64,000 nt of DNA from Halodesulfurarchaeum sp. (GTDB taxonomy: Archaea; Halobacteriota; Halobacteria; Halobacteriales; Halobacteriaceae). The stretch covers positions 81,482 to 145,481 of the forward strand of contig JAXHNL010000001.1 in assembly GCA_034520565.1 (NCBI GenBank). Direction: 5' to 3'. The notes beneath the pieces were generated by a model. That model did not search any database and was not told the DNA's origin. It saw nothing but the letters and a program-made list of their open reading frames with translations. Position 1 is the stretch's first letter. Each line of letters opens with the position of its first letter. The translations under genes were made by a program, and so were the position numbers. This document shows, piece by piece, positions 46,920 through 59,679 of the stretch.

Positions 46920-49106
46920 TTAGAAGTAGTTGATGCTCTCGGGAAGCTCGGTCTTCATGCCCTTGCGCTCGCGGATCTCGGTGATCTTCTCGGGCTGGAG
47001 GTTGTCGACGAGCACGCGGAAGCCGGCGTTCTCCGTGTTCCAGGAGGCCCGGCCCTCGGTCGCCGACCGGATGTCCGAGGAGAACCCGATCATTTCCCCG
47101 ACCGGTGCGATCCCCTCGACGACCATCAGGTCGCCCTCCTGATACATGTCGTCGACGCGGCCACGTCGACCCTGAATCTCGCCGGAGGCCGCGCCCATGT
47201 GCTCGGACGGAACGTCGATGCGGACGTCCTGGATCGGCTCGAGCAGCCGGATCTGGCCGTCGATCAGGGCGCGGTGAACCGCCTCGCGCATCGCCGGGAT
47301 GACCTGGGCCGGCCCGCGGTGGATGGCGTCTTCGTGGAGTCGGGCGTCGTGCAGCCGCACCAGCGCACCTTCGACCGGCTCTGCGGCGAGCGGGCCGTCT
47401 TCGAGCGCCTCTTCGAGGCCCTCGATGATGAGTTCCATCGTCTCGTTGAGGTGCTGAATCCCCTTCGTGTCGTCGATGAAGACGTTGGTGCCGATGATGT
47501 CCTCGACGTCCTGGGAGGTCTCTTTCTCCATCCCTGCCTCCTGGAGGGCCTCACGGCGCTCCTGCTCGGGCATGTCCATGGAGGCTTCGCCGAGTTTGAT
47601 CGTGTCGACGATCTCCTCGCCGAGGGGCTCGACCGTGACGTAGAAGCGGTTGTGGCGGTTCGGCGAAATGCCCTGCACTTCCTCGGACTCCTGGGTCGGG
47701 GCCTCGCGGTAGACGACGATCGGTTCACCGGTGCGGACCGGAATGCCCTGGTTGCGCTCGATGCGCTGGGTGATGACCTCGAGGTGGAGTTCGCCCTGTC
47801 CGGAGATGAGGTGCTCGCCGGTGTCCTCGTTGATCTCCACGCCGATGGTCGGGTCCTCCTTCGAGACCTGCTGGAGGACCTCGATCAACTTCGGGAGGTC
47901 GTCCATCTTCTGGGCCTCGATGGACTTCGTAATGACCGGCTCGGAGATGTGTTCGATGGACTCGAACGGTGTCATCTCGACGGAGGAGACCGTCGAACCG
48001 GCGATGGCGTCTTTCAGGCCGGTGACGGACGCGACGTTCCCGGCCGGAACTTCGGCGACCTCCTCTCGCTCGCCGCCCATGAAGACCCCGACCGACTGCA
48101 AACGGTTTTTCCCGGCGGTCCCGGAGACGTAGAGTTCCTGGCCTTCCTGAAGCGTTCCGGAGAAGACCCGGCCCGTGGCGATCTCGCCGGCGTGCGGGTC
48201 CATGGAGATGTCCGTGACCATGAACACGACCTCGCCGTCCTTGTTGACGTGCTGCATGTCCTTGGCGAGCTGGGAGTCGGGGTCGCCACGCCAGATAGTG
48301 GGAATCCGGTCGGGTTGCGCGTCGACCGGGTTCGGGAAGTGCTCGGCGACCATGTCGAGGACGACGTTCGAGAGCGGGGACTGCTCGTGCAGCTCCACGC
48401 GCTTGTCGTTTCGCTCCATCTTGATGACGTCCCCGAAGTCGATGCCCGTCGCGGCCATCGAGGGGGCGCTGATCGCCCAGTTGTACAGGGCCGACCCGAA
48501 CGCGACGGTACCGTCCTGGACGCTGACCTTCCAGTTGTCCTCCTCGTAGCGTTCCTCTGCCATCCCACGGATGAGCTCGTTGACGTCTCGGATGACGTTC
48601 TGGAGGCGCTCCTGCATCTCCTCGGGGCCCTCCTGCAGCTCGTTGATCAGGCGGTCGACCTTGTTGATGAACAGGGCCGGTTTGACGTTCTCCCGCAGGG
48701 CCTGCCGGACGACCGTCTCGGTCTGGGGCATCGTCCCCTCGACGGCGTCGACGACCACGAGCGCCCCGTCAACCGCGCGCATCGCCCGCGTGACGTCGCC
48801 ACCGAAGTCGACGTGACCGGGGGTGTCGATGAGGTTGACGAGGTAGTTGGTGTCCTGGTACTCGTGGGTCATCGAGACGTTCGCCGCGTCGATGGTGATG
48901 CCACGTTCCTGTTCGTCCTCCTCGGTGTCCATCGCCAGTTGCTCGCCGGCGAGGTCGTCGGAGATCATGCCGGCCCCCGCGAGAAGGTTGTCGGTCAGCG
49001 TGGTTTTGCCGTGATCGATGTGAGCGGCGATCGCGATGTTCCGGATCTGGTCCGGATGATCCATGAGCCGCTCACACTGTTCGACGATTTTCTTGCGTCG
49101 GCCCAT
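46920..49106 (-). CDS. fusA: Elongation factor 2 (aEF-2)
   Basis: [45 protein letters not shown]. Confidence 0.98.
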
Positions 49107-49310
49107 TGTTAACCCGTAGTTCCCCGCGCCGGTTCAAAAGGGTAGTGTTTCCTGCTGAGGCGCCGGTATGGGTACACGCACCAAAGACCGCCAGCACGCA
49201 CAGGGCAATGGCGGGCCGGGCTGGAGTCGGTTCACTGCTATTGCAAGAGATCGGTTTCGGGATTTCTCGCTGGTTGTATAGAAACGTATTAGATCGAATA
49301 CATGTGTCAA

Positions 49311-49337
49311 TGCTGAATAGAACGCGCATATCTTGCG
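49311..49337 (-). repeat. 27-bp putative recombination site L1
   Basis: TGCTGAATA-gaacgcgca-TATCTTGCG. Confidence 0.7.
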
Positions 49338-49440
49338 CAGTCTTCTATGGTGTGCTTGTCGAACTATAGCAGTTTAGTAGTCACAAGCGAAATCAGGAAA
49401 AGCCAATTACTAACCCTAGAAACATACGGCGGTCACTCTA

Positions 49441-51201
49441 TCACTCCTCAGATCCCTTTTCGTCATTTGAAGTACCGACTGGTAGCCAAAACGTTACCAC
49501 ACACCCACGGGGCTTGTTGTCGGTAATCGCCAATTCCCCGCCGAGTGTTTTTGCGGACCACTCCATTATCCACAGGCCAACCCCGAGACTGTGACCCAGA
49601 GGGGTTTGCTCGGCTGACTGGATTGCCTTCCGTTCGAATTCGGACATCCCCGGACCATTGTCAGCGATAGTTATTTGAATTTGATCGCCGTCCCGGTCTC
49701 GTTGGACCGTGATCGACACTTTCGGTGGGGACTGGTCAGTGTGTTGGATTGCGTTTGAGACGGCCTCATCCATCGCATTCTTGAACAACGCTGTGTTTCG
49801 AATCTGAATGTCTCCGATATCCCCAACCGTACAGCTGATTTCTGCCCCCGGATACTGTCGCTGATATGTTTCGAAAAATGACACCATATCGGGCCGTTCC
49901 CACTTCTCACGAACTTTGGCCAAATCCCTGATTGAGCTGATCTTCCCCGTCTTCTCACCGATCTTTTGCATCGATGCGGCCTGGTCTCGAATCGCCGCGA
50001 CCGACGCCCTGCGAGCATTCGGGTCCAACTCCCCGTCTTCCAATAACGCTGCGTGCCCGTCGATGACGGTAATCGCGCTTCGCAAGTTGTGGCGTATCAC
50101 ACGATTCATAACGTCAAGTGCCTTCCTCGTGAGCACGTTCTCAGTGACGTCTTCAATAATTCCCACAAAGTGGGTTATTTCGTCGTCCACATCCCAAACC
50201 GGGGTGATGGTTTGTTTGGCCTCGTATAATTCACCGTATTTCGTCTTGTTCACAATTTCTGCGTCCCAAACATCACCCGCGGTAATCGTTTCCCATAGCT
50301 CCGCGTAGAATTCGTCGTCCTGCTGGCCAGATTTGAGGATTCTCGGGTTCCGACCGATTGCTTCGGCAGCCGTATATTCGTTCAATCGCTCGAAGGTGGG
50401 ATTAACGTATTGGATCGTTCCATCCAAGTCGGTAATCACGATAGCTTTCTCGGACTCCTCGGCATGTGCTTTGAACAAGGAGAGATCCTGTTCCTGTTGC
50501 TTTTTAGCGGTGATGTCCTGTTGGTAGCCGAGATAGTTCGTGACTGTTCCGGAGTCGTCCCGGACCGGGATAATAGTGACACGGTTCCAGAACATCGAGC
50601 CGTCTTTTCGATAGTTTCGTAACTCGACAGAGACGGGCTCTTCAGCATCAATTGATTCTCGCATTTGCGCCACTGGCTCCTCACGTGTGGCTTCACCCTG
50701 GAGAAACCGACAGTTCCGGCCCAGGATTTCCTCACGGTCGTAACCGGTTATCTTGCAGAACCCATCGTTAACATGGATGAGTGGATTGTGGGGCTGGGAT
50801 GGGTCCGAAACTGTGATACCGATGGGGGCTTCGTCTATTTCCTCACCCTGGAGTAGTTGCTCTGGGCTCGCATATCTATCGGTCAGCGGAAACACTGAGG
50901 TTTGGACGTGTTGACTGCCCTCCCACGTGGTCATCGAACTCACGGCGATGACTTCAGTTGGGTCGGGAGCCGTGTCGAGTTTGAGAGTGAGGCCACGGGC
51001 AGAAGCCTCCCCGTTTTCGATTACCGAAATCTGTTCGCGGAGTGGAGTATGATAGTCAGTGTCAACTATATCCAGCAAAGACATGCCGACAAGTTCTGCC
51101 GGTGAATCTACATCGATAAATGAACAAAATGTGGAGTTAGCATAGACGATCTCAGTCCCGGAATGTACGAGAAATGAATCGGGCATAGAATTAGAGCCCA
51201 T
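49441..51201 (-). CDS. PAS/LOV/PAS sensor histidine kinase
   Basis: LOV signature GRNCRFLQG and NYRKDG; further PAS with GRNPRILKSG; H-box RHNLR; N-box EAVSNAIQH; DNGPG; GVGLW; start uncertain. Confidence 0.92.
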   Translation of the reverse strand: MGSNSMPDSFLVHSGTEIVYANSTFCSFIDVDSPAELVGMSLLDIVDTDYHTPLREQISVIENGEASARGLTLKLDTAPDPTEVIAVSSMTTWEGSQHVQTSVFPLTDRYASPEQLLQGEEIDEAPIGITVSDPSQPHNPLIHVNDGFCKITGYDREEILGRNCRFLQGEATREEPVAQMRESIDAEEPVSVELRNYRKDGSMFWNRVTIIPVRDDSGTVTNYLGYQQDITAKKQQEQDLSLFKAHAEESEKAIVITDLDGTIQYVNPTFERLNEYTAAEAIGRNPRILKSGQQDDEFYAELWETITAGDVWDAEIVNKTKYGELYEAKQTITPVWDVDDEITHFVGIIEDVTENVLTRKALDVMNRVIRHNLRSAITVIDGHAALLEDGELDPNARRASVAAIRDQAASMQKIGEKTGKISSIRDLAKVREKWERPDMVSFFETYQRQYPGAEISCTVGDIGDIQIRNTALFKNAMDEAVSNAIQHTDQSPPKVSITVQRDRDGDQIQITIADNGPGMSEFERKAIQSAEQTPLGHSLGVGLWIMEWSAKTLGGELAITDNKPRGCVVTFWLPVGTSNDEKGSEE

Positions 51202-51307
51202 ATGTGACTTTATGTCACCCAACGGGATATAGTTTTAGCAGTCCACCCTGGAAAATGTGTCTAACCATGTGCGAAAGATAGGGCCTCTGTGCTGCATACA
51301 CACTCTA

Positions 51308-52286
51308 GGCCTTGTTTAGACGACTGAAATCACTGGGTAGAACCCTCAATGCCGCGTTCGATGTTTCGGACCGCGGATTTCATGACAAGTTCGCGGAATT
51401 GACCGAACCAGGTTCTCGACCAGAGCGTGTCTCCATATCTGCGCCGGAGACCGAAAAACACCGATTCAGCGTTCGAGCGTTGGTGATACGCCCGATCATG
51501 GATGAGCAAGTTTCTCGCCCATCCCCGCATCCCAGGGTCTCGCTGCGGAATCAACGGTGTGATATGTTCCGCACGCAACCGCGTGCGAAGCTCCTCCCAG
51601 TCGTAGCCCTTATCGGCCGCGAGAGTGCTCAATGCGTCGAGATTCCGGGTTAGCACCTGCCAGCCAACCTGTGTATCGTGTGGTTGTTTCATCGAACAGT
51701 GTATATCTAGGATCGCACTCGTCTCACAATCGACCAGCAGCGTCGTCTTCACCGCTTCGAACGTGTAGTCCGTCCGTTTCGCGTAATGCTGGCTGGCCTG
51801 GACGCGATCCACGCCGGTTGCGTCGATCGCCTGAACATCTCCGAGTTCGTACAGTTCGACCGACGAATCGAGCATCGCTCGCCACCGCTTCATCGGGATC
51901 TCCTGCTTTCTCGCACAGACCGTCGAGAAGTGAGGCAGTGTCTCAACGGTTAATCCAAGCGAATTCGCGACTCTCGGCATCTCACGGAGGACATCCATCA
52001 GCTTCCGGTAATCGTGGTTGAGATACTCTTTGAGCCCTTGAATGGCGAGAATGACCCAGTCGGCATACCCTTCTTCGCCCGGCCGGTATGCCGGCGCTGG
52101 CTGGCCAGCGACGGCTTTTTGAGCGAACGACACGACTGTCTTCGCGAAGCGGGCGGTCTTCGTGAGCACACCGAAACCGTCCCGCTTCACTTCCTAGTAA
52201 ATTTGGTACTTCTCAATATTTACTAGAATGACGATAATAGTTAGATGGGTCCTAACCTCCCCGAATTCAATCGTCTAAACAAGGCC
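51308..52286 (-). mobile_element. IS5-family insertion sequence (ISH1-like group), 979 bp
   Basis: TIR GGCCTTGTTTAGACGA / TCGTCTAAACAAGGCC; 9-bp TSD CACACTCTA at 51299-51307 and 52287-52295. Confidence 0.92.
51330..52190 (-). CDS. IS5-family DDE transposase
   Basis: AIDATG, ADKGYD, YHQRSNAESVF. Confidence 0.92.
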   Translation of the reverse strand: MKRDGFGVLTKTARFAKTVVSFAQKAVAGQPAPAYRPGEEGYADWVILAIQGLKEYLNHDYRKLMDVLREMPRVANSLGLTVETLPHFSTVCARKQEIPMKRWRAMLDSSVELYELGDVQAIDATGVDRVQASQHYAKRTDYTFEAVKTTLLVDCETSAILDIHCSMKQPHDTQVGWQVLTRNLDALSTLAADKGYDWEELRTRLRAEHITPLIPQRDPGMRGWARNLLIHDRAYHQRSNAESVFFGLRRRYGDTLWSRTWFGQFRELVMKSAVRNIERGIEGSTQ

Positions 52287-52343
52287 CACACTCTATATTC
52301 AGCAGTCGGTTTCTGACAAACTTTGAGTAGAACTCAGCGAGCG

Positions 52344-52370
52344 TGCTGAATACAACGCGCGTATGTCGCA
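52344..52370 (-). repeat. 27-bp putative recombination site L2
   Basis: TGCTGAATA-caacgcgcg-TATGTCGCA. Confidence 0.75.
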
Positions 52371-52426
52371 AACCGGGGGGATTAACTCGTGGGATCCGTA
52401 TGTAACGGTAGAGAGGCGATGCACGA

Positions 52427-52783
52427 TTGACGCGGATGTGGGGAATTGATCCTCAGCTGCTCTGTGACCAGCATTTGCTTGGCGAACACACCGAAATGCA
52501 CCAGGCGGTCGGGACGCTCCGGAACCACCCACATGGTGAGGCGATCGTCCGTGGGCATGCCGAGCGACAGCAACTCGATACATCGAAGCTACAGGCCCGA
52601 CATGATGATCTGGCGGACGAACTCGAACGCAGAGGAATGACCCACGACTCGCCAATGAACTACGAAGACACCCACGAGTTGGGCAGCATCAATCCGGAAC
52701 GCAACCGTGCGAACATCCGAAACCGGTGTGACGATTGCCAAAACCGAATCGAAGCAGCGAAAACGGACTCTACTAACAGCTGA
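52427..52783 (+). CDS. Pyrimidine-dimer DNA glycosylase / T4 endonuclease V-like protein
   Basis: MTRMW...LCDQHLLGEHTE aligns with the DenV N-terminus (DQHLxxExxE); RHDDLADELERRGMTH. Confidence 0.75.
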   Translation: MTRMWGIDPQLLCDQHLLGEHTEMHQAVGTLRNHPHGEAIVRGHAERQQLDTSKLQARHDDLADELERRGMTHDSPMNYEDTHELGSINPERNRANIRNRCDDCQNRIEAAKTDSTNS

Positions 52784-52973
52784 TTCGTCGGTCGCCCGGA
52801 ATTGCTGGGATGATTCACCGCCTGGATTCAGGCCTGATAGTTAAACCGGACCGGGACTTTGCCGAGGACACGCACGTCGAGTTTTCGACTCAGGTAGTGC
52901 CCACCAGGCACGTACTCGTTTGGAATCCAAACGCCGGACGAACAGATGACCGCTCAGATTAGCTTGGTTGAAC

Positions 52974-53000
52974 TGCTGCATACAAAGTCTATATTCAGCA
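52974..53000 (+). repeat. 27-bp putative recombination site R2
   Basis: TGCTGCATA-caaagtcta-TATTCAGCA. Confidence 0.8.
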
Positions 53001-53197
53001 TAGTTGAAAATCCATTTGGAATTTGACAATAGATTTGGGTATTACCACTCATCATCCCTCGGAGCGGATGAGTGCTACTACGATCCTAGTGGACTCTAGA
53101 TCAGTTGATCATGCGCCGCAAATTGCTGAATTCGACATTTAATGTCTCCGATTAGCCAACACATTGATTGCACTCGCTTCAGTGTGTCCTACTATAT

Positions 53198-54280
53198 ATG
53201 GCAGGTACTATACAACTCAACGAGGATGAAGGATGCGTAGAGATCCAGAACCTCACCATCGAGGACTCCGACGTCTTCCGGTATCTCCAGGATGTCGAAC
53301 CCGAGGGCCGTGAGGCAGAGGTCCGGAGTATGCTCGCGATGGGTGTTGTCGCCCTTCGAGCTAGTCAGACTGCCGGAGAGATCGATTACGTCGAACGGCG
53401 GTTCTCAGAACTACAGTATAACTTGGAGGGAAAGTTCGAGGACACATTCGGGGAAGAAGGCCATATACGGGAGTACCTCGAGGGTCAGATAGGTGAAGAT
53501 GGCCGGCTCGTGGACGAGCTGTTGAATCCGAATGAGCCAGACTCGCCGATGTACCGACTCAAGAAAGCGATCTCTGACGAATTCGACGAATTGGAGAAGA
53601 ACATCTTCGGGGAGGAGGTCCGGGAGGGGATGGTCGAGAAGACGCCACTCAAAGGCGGAAAATTCGAGGAAGAACTGGAGGACCTACTCGGCGAAGTCGC
53701 CAAAATCCACGGGGACAAACTTACGTTCACGGGAGAGGAACACGGCGAACTCGAGTCAAGCAAGAAGGGTGATTTCGTGGTCGACCTGGGTCGGCCTAAG
53801 GGTCGAATAGCCGTCGAGGCGAAGAACATGTCCTACAACCTCCCTGACATCGAGTCGGAGATGAAGGAGGCAATCCGGAATCGAGAGGCGGATTATGGTC
53901 TCTTCGTAGCACGGTCCATCGACCAGTTACCGAACAAGGTGGGCTGGTTCAACGAATACGATGGAGAATATCTCGTGGTGGCGTTAAGCGAAGGAGATGA
54001 GGCGGAGTCTGCGGATGAGTTGCTGAAGGTTGCCTATCGATGGTCGCGGATGCGGCTTCTCGAGGAGCTGACGCCGACTGGTGAGGATATCGATGTCTCC
54101 GAGATTCAGTCCAAAGTGAAGGCGGCTGAGCGGACGATGGAGGACTTCCGGAATATCCGGACAAAGCTGACGAATATCGAGAAATCGTCGCAGAGTATCC
54201 GGGACATCCTCGGGGAAATTGAATCGGATCTCGATGAGCAGTTGCGGGCGATCAATTCGGAAATCGAAGCCAATGTGTGA
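53198..54280 (+). CDS. Coiled-coil PD-(D/E)XK nuclease-like protein (DUF2130/RmuC-like)
   Basis: KGGKFEE...KKGDFVV...IAVEAKN...NREADYGLFV, flanked by coiled coils. Confidence 0.65.
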   Translation: MAGTIQLNEDEGCVEIQNLTIEDSDVFRYLQDVEPEGREAEVRSMLAMGVVALRASQTAGEIDYVERRFSELQYNLEGKFEDTFGEEGHIREYLEGQIGEDGRLVDELLNPNEPDSPMYRLKKAISDEFDELEKNIFGEEVREGMVEKTPLKGGKFEEELEDLLGEVAKIHGDKLTFTGEEHGELESSKKGDFVVDLGRPKGRIAVEAKNMSYNLPDIESEMKEAIRNREADYGLFVARSIDQLPNKVGWFNEYDGEYLVVALSEGDEAESADELLKVAYRWSRMRLLEELTPTGEDIDVSEIQSKVKAAERTMEDFRNIRTKLTNIEKSSQSIRDILGEIESDLDEQLRAINSEIEANV

Positions 54281-54442
54281 TTTATCCTCCTGGGAGTAGA
54301 AATCACAATTCCCCGTCTGAGCATGGTTAATAGTGTTAGCCCGTTGGGCTATGTTGTGACGAATAGAATTGATTCAAGGCGCCAATCTGGACAGTCATAG
54401 ACCTGTAGAATGCTTATTAGTATCCCATGGTTTGGCTAAGAC

Positions 54443-55075
54443 ATGGAAATCAACGAGGAAATTCAATCTATAGTCAATGACTTCAAGGGAGATCATTGGA
54501 TTATTTCCACGGTCCCGAACAATGGGATAATATTAGCAAATACTGATTTTTCTGAGGTCCTTGAACGAATTTCGGACCTTGGAATTGACGAGATCTACAT
54601 CGTCGTAGACGAATCAATGACTCCGATTGGATTGGCATTTCATCATAATGGGATATTCCATTTGTCAATGGAAAGTGAACCATTCATTAGCTCATCAGCA
54701 TCAACCGAATCCAGATCCAGGCTTGCTTTTGATTCAGACGACAATATAGAGCAGAAACGAGAGATTGCCTCGGAAATAATTGATAGGTATGAGGAGCTAA
54801 TGTCCGATGTACAAGTGGCTGAATTAGAGGGGGACCTTCAATATATGTCGATGAGTCGACTCTACCGTCTGAAGGAGAAGATGGAGGAAAAGCAGAGAAT
54901 TGACGAAAACTTGGAAAAAGAGGCCGCGAAATGGCTTGCAGAGGATGACCGATTCAACCACAATTGCAACGAAACAGATTCTGAAACTCTACTTGAGGCC
55001 AGTGGTGATTTCGCCCTCGATGAAATCCGCATTGAAGAGGTTCACAAGAAGGCTAAGAGTTATCTGAAATTGTGA
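54443..55075 (+). CDS. Hypothetical acidic protein
   Basis: 210-aa ORF with AT-rich codon usage; no recognised motif. Confidence 0.6.
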   Translation: MEINEEIQSIVNDFKGDHWIISTVPNNGIILANTDFSEVLERISDLGIDEIYIVVDESMTPIGLAFHHNGIFHLSMESEPFISSSASTESRSRLAFDSDDNIEQKREIASEIIDRYEELMSDVQVAELEGDLQYMSMSRLYRLKEKMEEKQRIDENLEKEAAKWLAEDDRFNHNCNETDSETLLEASGDFALDEIRIEEVHKKAKSYLKL

Positions 55076-55162
55076 TCTCAATGGTAAAGCGTTTCAAGAA
55101 CTTGCGCCCATTCCATTAATACGAGGGCATCGCATGGGGAGGCCAACTGTTAGGTCTCATCC

Positions 55163-55189
55163 TGCGCGATCCACGCTCTATATTCAGCA
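55163..55189 (+). repeat. 27-bp putative recombination site R3
   Basis: TGCGCGATC-cacgctcta-TATTCAGCA. Confidence 0.7.
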
Positions 55190-55292
55190 CCAACCTAGAG
55201 CCCCTGTCAGTTCTATATTAATTCGTCAGGGACCGAACTGTCCGGGTGAGACGGCCACTGCGATAGAGCCCCAGTGCAGGCTCCCACTTGAT

Positions 55293-55308
55293 GAAAGCGA
55301 AAAAGAAC
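55293..55308 (-). terminator. Putative T-rich archaeal terminator downstream of rps7
   Basis: Minus strand reads GTTCTTTTTCGCTTTC about 20 nt after the stop. Confidence 0.4.
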
Positions 55309-55327
55309 CGAGTTCGAACGGCAGTAC

Positions 55328-55963
55328 TTAGCGAGCCGCGGCCGCGACGCGCTCTTTCTCCTCTTTCTGGTTGACGGCGTAGGTGCTGCACGTCACCCTC
55401 CGCCGCGCCGATGAGCTGCTGGGCGAGTGCCTCCTCGACGTCGGTGGGCGTCTTGAACGAGGCGCTGTAGGTGCCCTCCGCGAGGAACTTCAGCGCCTGG
55501 TCGACCCGGCGCTGAGGGCCCGTATCGACGGCCTTCGGGACCGAGATCCCGCCGTACTTCAGGCGAACGGTCTCCTCGCGAGGGGCGGCGTTCTCGATCG
55601 CACGGACGAGGACCTGCACCGGGTTCTCGCCAGTCCGCTCGTGAACGATTTCGAAGGCCTCGCGGACGATCCTGAGGCGTTTGCTGCTTCTTGCCGGTGT
55701 TCTCCTCGGTCTGCATCAGCCGGTTGATGAGGCGCTCGACCACGCTGATCTCGGACTTCTTGAACTGCTTTGCCGGCGTGGCGGCCCATCGTGTGGGCGA
55801 CCGGTGTCACGGTGATGTACCGACGAGTGCTCGGATCCGTGTACTGGATGCCCGTGACGTCCCAACGACCGAACAACTGGGCGACGGCCGCTTCTTCCTC
55901 TTCGACCGCCTCGGCATCGGACTCCGTTTCCTCGACGTCGGCCTCGGGTTCTTCCTCGGCCAT
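55328..55963 (-). CDS. rps7: 30S ribosomal protein S7; three apparent single-base frameshifts (~55770, ~55676, ~55385)
   Basis: [43 protein letters not shown] and the C-terminal ERVAAAAR* are distributed across frames. Confidence 0.9.
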
Positions 55964-56593: not shown

Positions 56594-57016
56594 TCACGTC
56601 AGCTGGATGTCGTCCACGCCAAAATGTCGTGAAGCCAACTTCTTTGCGGCCTCGATGTTCTGTCCGTTCGTCCCAATTGCCGCACCGTGATCGGCCCGAT
56701 CAACCTCGGCGTAGGCGACGAGGTCGCCGTTCTCCGAAATGGTAACGTTGTAAACCGCCGCGGGCGCGAGCGCGTTCGCGACGAATCCCTCGGCCGTCGG
56801 GGCGTCTTCGACCAGCTCGACGTCCTCGTTGATTCGCTCCTCGAGCCGCTTGACTCGACGGCCGTCGGGACCGATCGCCTGTCCCATCTCGCCGGCGGTA
56901 ACGACGAAAAGCACCTGATCGTGATCCTCGTCGATGACACAATCGACGGCCGTCGCTCCCGTTACGTCCTCGAAAAGCGCGATGTAGCGGCGTGCCTCGT
57001 CTGTGAGGGACAACAT
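56594..57016 (-). CDS. nusA: Archaeal NusA (KH domains)
   Basis: [19 protein letters not shown]; conserved position between rpoA2 and rps12. Confidence 0.92.
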
Positions 57017-57017
57017 C

Positions 57018-59679
57018 TCAGTCCGAACGGTGGGCCTGCATCCGGAGGTCCACGTCGCCGGTGCCGAGCTTGATCGGCTTGCCGACGATGACGTTCTCGA
57101 TGACGCCGTCGAGGTCGTCGACTTCGCCGTGGACCGCCGCGTCGAGCAGGTGGTTGACCGTCACCTCGAAGGCCGCCCGGGCGAGCACGCTCTTCTTGTT
57201 GCCCGAGATGCCGTGCCGGCCGATCGACTGGATCGTCCCGTCGTTGGTCATGATGTCGGCCACGAGCATGAGGTGGCGAATGTTCACGTCGCCGAGCCCC
57301 TGCTCCTCCAGGGTGTCTCATCGTCTCATCGATTATTCGTTCTCTCGCTGCCTCGACTCCGAGCACCTCGAAAATCTCGTGGATGTTGTTACAGGTCGTC
57401 CGGGAGGCGTCGACGCCCTCGATGTCGAGGACGTCCTTGAACGCCGATCCCTCGGTGTAGAGGACGAACTCCTCGCCGTCCTCGCCTTCCTCCTTCCGGA
57501 TGACGACTCGGGAGATCTCCTCGATCCCCTTGAACACGATCTCCCGGAGCTCCTCGACGAGCTGCAGGAGTTCTCGGTAACTGGGCCGTTCGGGACCGAA
57601 CTCGAGCACGAGTCCCTGTCGGTTGACCTCCACGCCGAGTGACTCGCGGATCGTGTCCGCGATTTCGCCGACGACCTCCTCGGTGTTGGTCGCGGTCGGC
57701 CACCGCTCGCGGAGGGTGTCCTCGTTCAGGTCGATGCGGACGATCATGTCCGCGACGTTCGTCGAGATGTCGCCCAGCGCGAGGATCTTCGTCGCCTCGA
57801 TCTGCCAGACGACCTCGTGGGCGCGGTCGCGGTCCGTGGCGTACTCCTCGTCCAGATGAACCGTCATCATCGGCGTGTCCGGTTCCTTCCGGGCGTCCAC
57901 CAGTTCGATGAGCCGTGGAAGCCCCTGGGTGACGTCGATCTCCGCGACGCCCGCGTAGTGGAAGGTGTTCATCGTGTTGTGCGTAATGACACCCTGAGCG
58001 GTCGTGAAAGTCTCCAGTCCGGCGACCGAAACGTCGTAGACGAACTCGTGTTCCGGATCGACGGTCTCGACGGACTCGATTCGCTCCCAGACGACGTCAC
58101 CTTCGACGGCCCGCTCGAGAACGTCGAATTCCGGGGGACGGTCATCCACGTTCGCCTCGATGTCCTCGAGGAGCGACCCGAGACGGTTACGGCCGATCCG
58201 CTGGCGCTGGTGGGCCGCGTTGATCTGTCGGCCGGGAATCCCGGCAGCGCTCGCGGTCGTTTTCAGCGCATCGCCGAAATTGGGGATCTGATCCGTGGCA
58301 TCCGGACCGGTCGGGTCCGTCTCGGCCGCGAGTTCGTGCAGTTCCGTCCCGCGATCGCCAACCATGCCGATCCGGTCTTCGAACGCGGGCACGTACTTCT
58401 TCGGGATTCGAAGCGTCGTCGACGCTCCTTGCGTGCCAAAGCGGGCATAGATGTCAAATCGGGAGAGAAGGAGGGCGATCCCTTCGAGCAACTCCCGCGA
58501 CCGCGAACTTGCTCTGATGGCATTCGTCCCAACGTTTCCATCGCCGCTGAAGTATCCCCGGAGCAAGCCACGTGCGAACGCCCCAGCGGCGCCAAAGGCC
58601 TGATCGGGGACGGTTTTCTGTCCGTCTTCGAGACACAGCGCCTCGCAGAGATCTGCGAGGATCGTCCCGTTTACCCGAATGTCGTGCCCCACGGCGAAGC
58701 CGCTCTCGTTGTCGTATTCGTTGTACGAGAGGCCGAACCGATCTGCGAAGGCGCGAATTCGTCGCTGAAAAGCCGGATCGACGTTCGAAATGGAGACGTA
58801 ATGGTCGGTCAGATTCCCCTCGGCGAGGAATGCACCGACGAAGAAGCCGGTTTCACGGTCCAACGGGAATCGCTCCGGCAGTCCCACCGTCCCCTGGACG
58901 GGATAGACGGCGTTCTCCTGAAGCCGGCCCGACTTCAGCGCGTCGCGCTTGTTTCGAAGCTGGTCCGGGCCGCCCGGCGTGGCAGTTTGCACGCCCCCAT
59001 CCGTCAGCGTGGACGTGTACCAGTATTCAGTTGCCGGCAGGACCGACCGCAGGTCGAGCGAATCGGACTCGCCACCGTCCATAGATCGGACGACCGGCAG
59101 CCAGTCCCCTTCGTCGAGTGCTGCACCGGTCACCGGAACCACCGCATTGTCCTGGCGGGTGACAAAGGAGTGTGATTTCGTCGCTCGAATCGTTCTGCCC
59201 GATTCGAGTTCGAAACACAAGAGTTCGTCCGGGGACTCGTGGCGACTGACCTCCTCGACCGGTTTCCACTCGCTTCGTTCATCCTCGCGAAGCGAGAGGA
59301 CCGAGAGATCAGCCGGCGCTTTCGAGACTTCGTGGCCGTCTAGGTCCCGGGTTTCACCGGTTTCCAGCAGATCGTCGACGAGCGGCCCGATTTCGGTCAC
59401 GGCCGTTTCGCCCTGCCGACGGATCAAAATCCGCTCGTCGGCGGGCACCGACATCTGGGTTCCGGGTTCCCCGATCGACTGTGCCGAGACCGTCCCGACC
59501 GGGTCGAGCGGGTCGACCCGATTGTCGAGGTACTGTGCCTCGACGGCGTCGACGATCTCCTGAACCTCTTCGATGGTGACCGACCGGTTCTCGATCGTCT
59601 CGTAGACGTCGTCTTTGAGCCGTCGGGTGAGTTCGGTGTCCTCGACGATCGCCTCGATGTCGTCGTCGACGGCCGTCAT
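57018..59679 (-). CDS. rpoA2: RNA polymerase subunit A'' (Rpo1C) with intein; frameshift near 57318
   Basis: [11 protein letters not shown]|intein|TMNTFHYAG and GLPRLIE; C-terminal [11 protein letters not shown]...ARAAFE...GTG lies in a shifted frame. Confidence 0.95.
57976..59451 (-). mobile_element. Intein (492 aa) with LAGLIDADG homing endonuclease in rpoA2
   Basis: Starts SVPADE, block B TKSHSF, endonuclease motifs VGAFLAEG and [15 protein letters not shown], ends THN followed by Thr. Confidence 0.93.

Follow-up and report, generated by a model that had tools for sequence, protein, structure and literature searches.

Introduction

Target-specific insertion sequences (ISs) and symmetric target motifs are by now well established. 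IS5-family elements often insert with little specificity, and ISH1 is reported to have struck the bop gene repeatedly at a single position. A 9-bp duplication is generated by IS903, whose target motif is given as WTTYA-N9-TRAAW in Table 1 of PMC2577343, where a paper by Hu and Derbyshire is also cited whose title announces an orientation preference. Several other elements (ISPpu9/10, ISPa11, ISPsy8 and ISRm19/22) are described as entering short repeated extragenic palindromes, the REPs (PMC1525189, PMC12288879), while IS1111-attC elements and group IIC-attC introns are described as targeting integron cassette sites. For Haloquadratum walsbyi, 30 of the 31 MITEs nested inside another mobile element were reported to be situated in PATEs or IS605-type transposons, as were most of the small mobile repeats nested in this way, these repeats being placed within the near-terminal palindromes of the host elements (Dyall-Smith et al. 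2011, PMC3119063).

The element described here lies in a 64,000-nt stretch of DNA from Halodesulfurarchaeum sp. (the whole stretch being referred to as the window), and we consider it highly probable that its lineage, which is related to ISH9 and produces IS903-like 9-bp duplications, has a strong and oriented preference for the spacer of a 27-bp imperfect palindrome. It shares with IS903 a DDE transposase of the same family, a 9-bp duplication and specific bases that are symmetric outside the duplication (TGCTGAATA-N9-TATTCAGCA). Unlike those of IS903, its target arms are 9 bp long (as compared to 5), the duplication has a consensus of its own (CAnnCTCTG) and conservation continues past one arm; and where IS903 accepts any AT-rich near-match, the targets here constitute a discrete, repeated, class-wide site family. 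The likeness to the IS903 subgroup is confined to the 9-bp duplication and the target geometry, and the named relative is ISH9: an element on a Halobacterium salinarum plasmid, at a position labelled ISH9 in a strain comparison (PMC7002104), shows ~70% nucleotide identity to the window IS over 612 nt. The REP-targeting ISs differ in being bacterial and, for ISPpu9 at least, in belonging to the IS110 family, with a different chemistry; furthermore, REPs number hundreds per genome, whereas the haloarchaeal sites occur at 0-15 places per genome and border gene modules. With IS1111-attC elements and group IIC-attC introns the present lineage would have in common the specialisation of a mobile element on cassette recombination sites, if the sites are such, but the former are described as using an RNA-guided DEDD transposase and the latter are introns, whereas the enzyme here is a DDE transposase of the IS5 family. 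Term searches of one literature collection returned no class-wide, oriented, 27-bp-specific IS5-family lineage in archaea.

An IS5-family element within a 27-bp site

A preliminary description of this DNA, made from the sequence alone, had placed an IS5-family element exactly in the 9-bp spacer of a 27-bp site, and reading of the plus strand gives precisely this order (arm, CACACTCTA, IS, CACACTCTA, arm; Table 1). The 9-bp duplication CACACTCTA is perfect and fills exactly the gap that separates the left arm, TGCTGCATA, from the right arm, TATTCAGCA. Equally perfect is the 16-bp terminal inverted repeat, GGCCTTGTTTAGACGA, which has no occurrences in the window other than these two and is followed inward by weak similarity between the IS ends. 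As for the family, the sources agree with the earlier assignment: the transposase matches Pfam PF01609 (DDE_Tnp_1; E 1.4e-14) and reaches 207 bits against the NCBIfam model NF033579 (IS5 family transposase; cut-off 140, i.e. 130+10), models of other IS families score far under their cut-offs, and close copies of the IS in PLSDB records (haloarchaeal plasmids) carry the annotation 'IS5 family transposase'. The single transposase ORF, the short inverted ends, a length within 0.8-1.5 kb and a short target duplication of fixed length (9 bp, perfect in 16 of the 30 two-ended copies treated below) complete the picture of an IS5-family insertion sequence, a classification that is thus supported. Since the perfect duplication, the perfect 16-bp ends and the intact transposase gene, all noted earlier, are confirmed, a recent (if undated) insertion is plausible. 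The IS splits a site with a CTCT-type spacer 68 bp upstream of the start codon of a histidine kinase gene, towards which its transposase gene is oriented. In four metagenome runs no contig joins position 51307 to 52296, as an empty allele would, and contigs cannot show the absence of such an allele.

Table 1. Features of the interrupted site and of the surrounding island (window coordinates)
Feature	Position	Strand	Basis
Uninterrupted type I site, fusA-side island edge, downstream of the kinase gene	49311..49337	+	
PAS/PAS histidine kinase, sole gene of the module between site 49311 and the interrupted site	49441..51222	-	
Left arm of the interrupted 27-bp site, TGCTGCATA	51290..51298	+	direct sequence reading
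Target-site duplication copy 1, CACACTCTA (site spacer)	51299..51307	+	direct sequence reading
IS5-family insertion sequence, 979 bp	51308..52286	- (strand of transposase gene)	
Left terminal inverted repeat, 16 bp, GGCCTTGTTTAGACGA	51308..51323	+	
DDE transposase gene, 286 aa, intact	51330..52190	-	ORF, PF01609 and NF033579
Right terminal inverted repeat, perfect complement of the left	52271..52286	-	
Target-site duplication copy 2, CACACTCTA	52287..52295	+	direct sequence reading
Right arm of the interrupted site, TATTCAGCA	52296..52304	+	direct sequence reading
Linker, 39 nt, GTCGGT then TTCTGACA..., from interrupted site to next site	52305..52343	+	
Uninterrupted type I site (GCGC-type spacer), head of Pyr_excise module	52344..52370	+	
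Type II site without insertion; CTCT-type spacer CAAAGTCTA, conserved type of arm on both sides	52974..53000	+	
Site with degenerate left arm, rps7-side island edge	55163..55189	+	

The host genome (G000) holds two copies of the IS in total (blastn), the second of which is located on contig C2 (C2:1295251-1296234) and is 84% identical to the first. This copy has become a pseudogene through a frameshift some 100 codons into the gene; its duplication and ends are still perfect, and it is flanked in the order TGCTGAATA, CATCCTCTG, IS, CATCCTCTG, TATTCAGCA, that is, by the same type of site with a different spacer. As the spacers (CACACTCTA vs CATCCTCTG) differ and the outer flanks are unrelated, and as the C2 copy is 84% identical and frameshifted, we regard the two insertions as independent events that differ in age; the flawless duplication and ends of the window copy, together with its intact gene, fit with its being the younger. 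That the IS landed in the spacer by chance could be argued from the single case and from nothing beyond it. Given that both copies of the genome lie in sites, though the exact pattern is found uninterrupted at just 6 places in 1.86 Mb, and that the pattern holds class-wide, we consider chance already refuted and attach practically no probability to it.

Many related copies lie in the same type of site

A class-wide search with the whole IS against 401 genomes (E<=1e-100) recovered copies 75-90% identical in 37 other genomes; at most two candidates were scored per genome, so the counts given here are not copy numbers. The set of loci used for the flanks (45 loci, at least 75% identical) comprised the two own copies, 37 class-wide loci (78-90% identical) and six loci from the search for relatives (L001-L006); its copies are not phylogenetically independent, one locus (L200) has no usable flank, and effects of sub-lineage are described by identity bands. 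Within this set, left arms with at most 2 mismatches to the arm consensus were present at 25 of the 36 readable ends and right arms at 25 of 38 (21 of 38 at one mismatch or fewer), and among the 30 two-ended copies 16 had a perfect 9-bp duplication and 15 had both arms within 2 mismatches. At 2,000,000 random positions of contig C2 the corresponding background was 0.088% and 0.084% for a single arm and 5e-6 for both. The suggestion that the IS targets such sites, which had been put forward from the window alone, is thus upheld by the collected relatives: the motif proved strongly enriched in their flanks (2/2 copies in the genome and the above-mentioned ends, vs about 0.09% at random), and unrelated flanks were seen in a minority only.

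The sequence enriched around the copies is TGCTG(A/C)ATA-N9-TAT(T/G)CAGCA, with the 9-bp duplication as its spacer, and the flanks yield, at a level of at least 50% (36 left and 38 right ends), the consensus TGCTGAATA CAnnCTCTG / CAnnCTCTG TATTCAGCA nnCnnnTTnTGnC. The target consensus is therefore TGCTGAATA-CAnnCTCTG-TATTCAGCA together with conserved bases past the right arm, the duplicated 9 bp having the consensus CAnnCTCTG themselves. The left arm is the more degenerate of the two and nothing is conserved beyond it, while past the right arm six variable positions are followed by TTCTRWCA and more. Relative to the IS, the CTCT-type spacers were found in forward orientation in 23 cases and in reverse in 5 (n=28). 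The staggered cuts lie 9 bp apart at the inner edges of the arms, as had been deduced from the window, and they do so in independent insertions across many haloarchaeal genera; with cuts at these edges, repair duplicates exactly the spacer. The occupation of the same type of site by relatives in many haloarchaea points to homing and not to random landing.

The preference is strong without being an absolute rule, as can be seen from the 16 copies whose duplication is perfect, four of which (L001, L195, L197, L203) lack the arms and belong to three genomes with zero canonical sites; when a genome has no such site, the element still transposes into ordinary DNA. Moreover, many arms carry 1-3 mismatches, and the target is best viewed as a graded consensus. 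In three loci (L184, L186, L194) both flanks are site-like and the spacers unequal, a hybrid arrangement that is expected from recombination between two site-borne copies.

In many copies about 50 nt past the right arm are conserved, a stretch that could pass for part of the element, so that the IS and the arms might have spread as one larger unit or through homologous recombination between sites. We find such hitch-hiking very hard to reconcile with the data and grant it only a very small probability. The 9 bp vary between copies and yet match across each copy (perfectly in 16/30), a hallmark of target duplication, and the left flanks are unrelated; furthermore, sites that are uninterrupted and free of the IS carry the same right-hand extension, and MITEs with unrelated interiors have the same flanks.

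These MITEs (139-141 bp, with the ends of the IS) occupy the same sites and have 9-bp duplications: at least one exact arm was present in 8 of 10, and both arms with at most one mismatch in 6 of 10. Neither this shared use of the target by MITEs nor the bias in orientation nor the extension past the right arm had been noticed in the preliminary description. Some of them, together with some other relatives of the IS, use the sister site with the GCGC-type spacer. The left-arm sequence also recurs 9 nt outside IS and MITE ends in many genomes. A scan for the 15-nt end across the genomes of 185,579 species (one per species) gave at least 128 stretches and, among the matches listed, 90 unique haloarchaeal ends (which include unrelated element families merely sharing the end) and 35 non-haloarchaeal chance matches; among the same matches, an exact arm 9 nt outside the end accompanied 14 of the 90 vs 0 of the 35, and an arm with at most 2 mismatches 22 of the 90 vs 0 of the 35. 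In metagenomes of hypersaline lakes, 28 contigs of run X2 (22+6) and 24 of run X19 match the window from the IS end across the duplication and the whole right arm, and part from it at 52304/52305, where the consensus of their continuations resembles the conserved right-hand extension.

More distantly, the ISH9/ISH1 group has similar end sequences, and its 934-bp ISH9-like members (~70% identical to the window IS) have 8-9-bp duplications; unlike the present IS, they were found outside sites throughout (0/13 in sites). The same holds for the 141-bp MITE family of Halomicrobium katesii, which belongs with these ~70% identical relatives (0/12 in sites). Two site-bearing genomes (G008 and G052) each contain one ~70% relative outside sites (L020 and L017, respectively), and as most hosts of such relatives have few sites or none, these figures separate the effects of lineage and host only in part.

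Several further observations were made on copies and derivatives. L004 (in G019) and L005 (in G010), which show 76% identity to the window IS, have a common altered left end, in which the first five bases are replaced and a shared TTCATAG lies outside; their right flanks differ, one being in a site and the other not. More than 1,400 contigs per run in X2 and X19 match the IS at 90-99% identity (window 50900-52700), and a few of the contigs of these runs join both IS ends while skipping about 940-950 nt, and may represent MITE-like derivatives. Contig C2 additionally bears a 245-bp MITE (C2:1291464-1291708; L151:6464-6708) with the ends GGCCTTGTTTAGACG and GGCCGTGTTTAGACG and an 8-bp duplication with one mismatch, which is situated outside sites, 284 bp from the site at C2:1291154.

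How the target may be recognised

In the mechanism that we favour, a transposase dimer in the target-capture complex would recognise the two arms, along with part of the spacer, in duplex form, and the asymmetric spacer and the right-hand extension would set the orientation of the insertion. The geometry is that of IS903, where 5-bp symmetric flanks surround a 9-bp duplication of unspecified sequence, with a motif that is longer here and far more specific. The insertion cuts the site into two halves. The 23:5 bias could also have been produced by selection after insertion.

For some REP-targeting elements insertion into a loop has been reported, and the target here is likewise a palindrome with a 9-nt centre, whose perfect versions fold better than shuffled sequences (the site at L176: -6.7 kcal/mol, z -4.9). 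One might accordingly picture the IS entering the loop of a hairpin or cruciform extruded by the palindrome. Hairpins were, however, weak in all but the perfect palindromes: the empty equivalent of the target in the window reaches only -2.9 kcal/mol (z -0.7) and type I sites form no hairpin at all. Furthermore, the arms show no compensatory changes and many targets have imperfect arms. We therefore hold entry through an extruded structure to be quite improbable; the weak folding, the lack of compensating arm changes and the tolerance of degenerate arms argue for a protein that reads the duplex rather than a hairpin.

This protein is probably the transposase, which would contact the arms, but a host protein bound to the site could recruit it instead, much as Tn7 uses TnsD at attTn7. 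The transposase would then be drawn to a site-bound recombinase or regulator, for instance, or to DNA bent by that protein. Recruitment would be in keeping with arms that resemble protein half-sites and are conserved class-wide to the base, with an A/C variant position that is never accompanied by the compensating C...G combination in the listed sites (as judged by eye) and with the weak hairpin energies; and an asymmetric complex bound at the site would supply the asymmetry that the orientation bias calls for. Set against this, no candidate protein was found and no recombinase recurs next to the site clusters, direct reading (as for IS903) accounts more simply for the CAnnCTCTG consensus of the duplication and for cuts in so exact a register, and insertions at degenerate arms suggest a graded preference for DNA. 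On balance, we deem recruitment unlikely and retain direct reading by the transposase as our preferred explanation.

Sites, islands and gene modules

Apart from the interrupted site, the window has four more matches to the pattern TGCNNNATA-N9-TATNNNGCA at up to one mismatch, all of them uninterrupted (49311, 52344, 52974, 55163). Shuffled sequences gave an expectation of 0.03 matches and reached four in 0 of 100 cases, from which we conclude that the site family is real and that the duplication constitutes exactly the spacer of one of its members. The site at 52974 is the empty equivalent of the IS target. Of 151 near-complete genomes from the class Halobacteria, 72 contained the strict form of the pattern (0-15 places per genome), and none contained the reversed pattern, used as a control. 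The family comprises two classes of spacer (..GCGC. and ..CTCT.) and has one conserved arm (TGCTGAATA), the other being variable (e.g. TATCTTGCA, TATCGGTCA). The two spacer classes are often paired in a composite of ~93 bp (CTCT-type site, 39 nt, GCGC-type site), and the interrupted site forms one such pair with the site at 52344; part of the linker between them (N6-TTCTRWCA) is conserved next to other copies of the IS too. A search of Rfam over 49000-55600 (E up to 1) gave no match.

The five 27-bp sites divide an island (49100-55330; about 50% GC, with a range of about 42-58%, vs about 64%), which is inserted between fusA (46920-49106) and rps7 (true stop near 55329), into modules of one or two genes. 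In three relatives of the genus the two core genes lie next to each other and their junction is free of sites. A second island lies on C2 between TmcA and the Glu/Gln-tRNA synthetase gene (gltX), which abut without a site in two relatives; as the empty rps7-fusA and TmcA-gltX loci of the relatives are free of sites, no attB-like site can be defined from them. In other genomes the site clusters also flank small accessory modules, often with PAS histidine kinases. No uninterrupted copy of the kinase module of the window was found in 41 genomes of the family, the best match being 139 nt at 73%. The Pyr_excise (pyrimidine-dimer glycosylase) module (52344-52834) has two copies of 91% identity in G008 (L222, L223), in other contexts and each with a two-site composite ahead. 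Their homology to the window sets in within the GCGC-type site: the right arm and the final bases of the spacer are common to both, while the left arm and the upstream sequence differ. A boundary of this kind would be the trace expected of a crossover within the site. Elsewhere in the window (56962-59679, minus strand) we observed an RNA polymerase subunit gene (Rpb1 domain 5) containing an intein with a LAGLIDADG homing-endonuclease domain.

The sites were also considered as near-terminal palindromes of IS605-type transposons or PATEs, and this identity was rejected on position (distance from TnpB), though one of the PATE families of PMC3119063 may carry the same palindrome. None of the three TnpB loci of the host genome has a site within 1.8 kb, and a strict site within ~2 kb was present for just one of the 48 TnpB hits in five site-rich genomes; unlike the targets described in H. 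walsbyi, the sites are thus not associated with TnpB. The modules between them hold kinases and other cargo instead, and no Y1 transposase was found in the host genome (81% complete).

In their geometry the sites consist of two inverted arms and a spacer (27 bp) and border low-GC modules of one or two genes. For archaeal dif a layout of 11-6-11 is given in PMC8371274. As regards a cognate recombinase, none recurs beside the site clusters. In G159, a 198-aa tyrosine recombinase consisting of the catalytic domain only (L215:2336-2932) lies 218 bp from a site (L215:2092-2118), the two being part of a repeat of >4 kb present in three copies (99.9% identity), and in G010 a tyrosine recombinase of 234 aa lies 0.8 kb from a site; the two proteins are unrelated by BLASTP, that of G159 has no match in the host genome, and the four PF00589 loci of the latter are all far from sites. 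The three identical sites of G159 were dismissed as borders of a small element, since the repeat that holds them exceeds 4 kb at 99.9% identity.

We put forward, tentatively and as a possibility about which we have considerable doubt, that the sites and their ~93-bp composites are the recombination sites of an undescribed, class-wide gene-cassette system (integron-like or pdif-module-like) that moves individual accessory genes, in many cases for PAS histidine kinases, into the spaces separating core genes, and on which the IS5 lineage and its MITEs have specialised. If the sites do recombine, as their position at the borders of modules suggests, the insertion would disable the interrupted one; it may also hold the kinase module in place, as had been proposed from the sequence, or alter expression of the kinase.

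Implications

Should a cassette system of this kind exist, it would insert genes even between rps7 and fusA, the IS and the MITEs would be its parasites or antagonists (an archaeal counterpart of the IS1111-attC elements), and copies of the IS would serve as ready markers for cassette sites in any haloarchaeal genome. The preference of the IS lineage for its target has implications of its own: the element offers a compact system, found in nature, that would recognise a long target by protein alone, and its targeting of the sites accounts for part of the haloarchaeal pattern in which mobile elements land in mobile elements. Moreover, the flanks of the IS expose a conserved family of sites that border accessory-gene modules, even inside a cluster of ribosomal-protein and elongation-factor genes, and this family makes the shuffling of single genes in haloarchaea directly testable.
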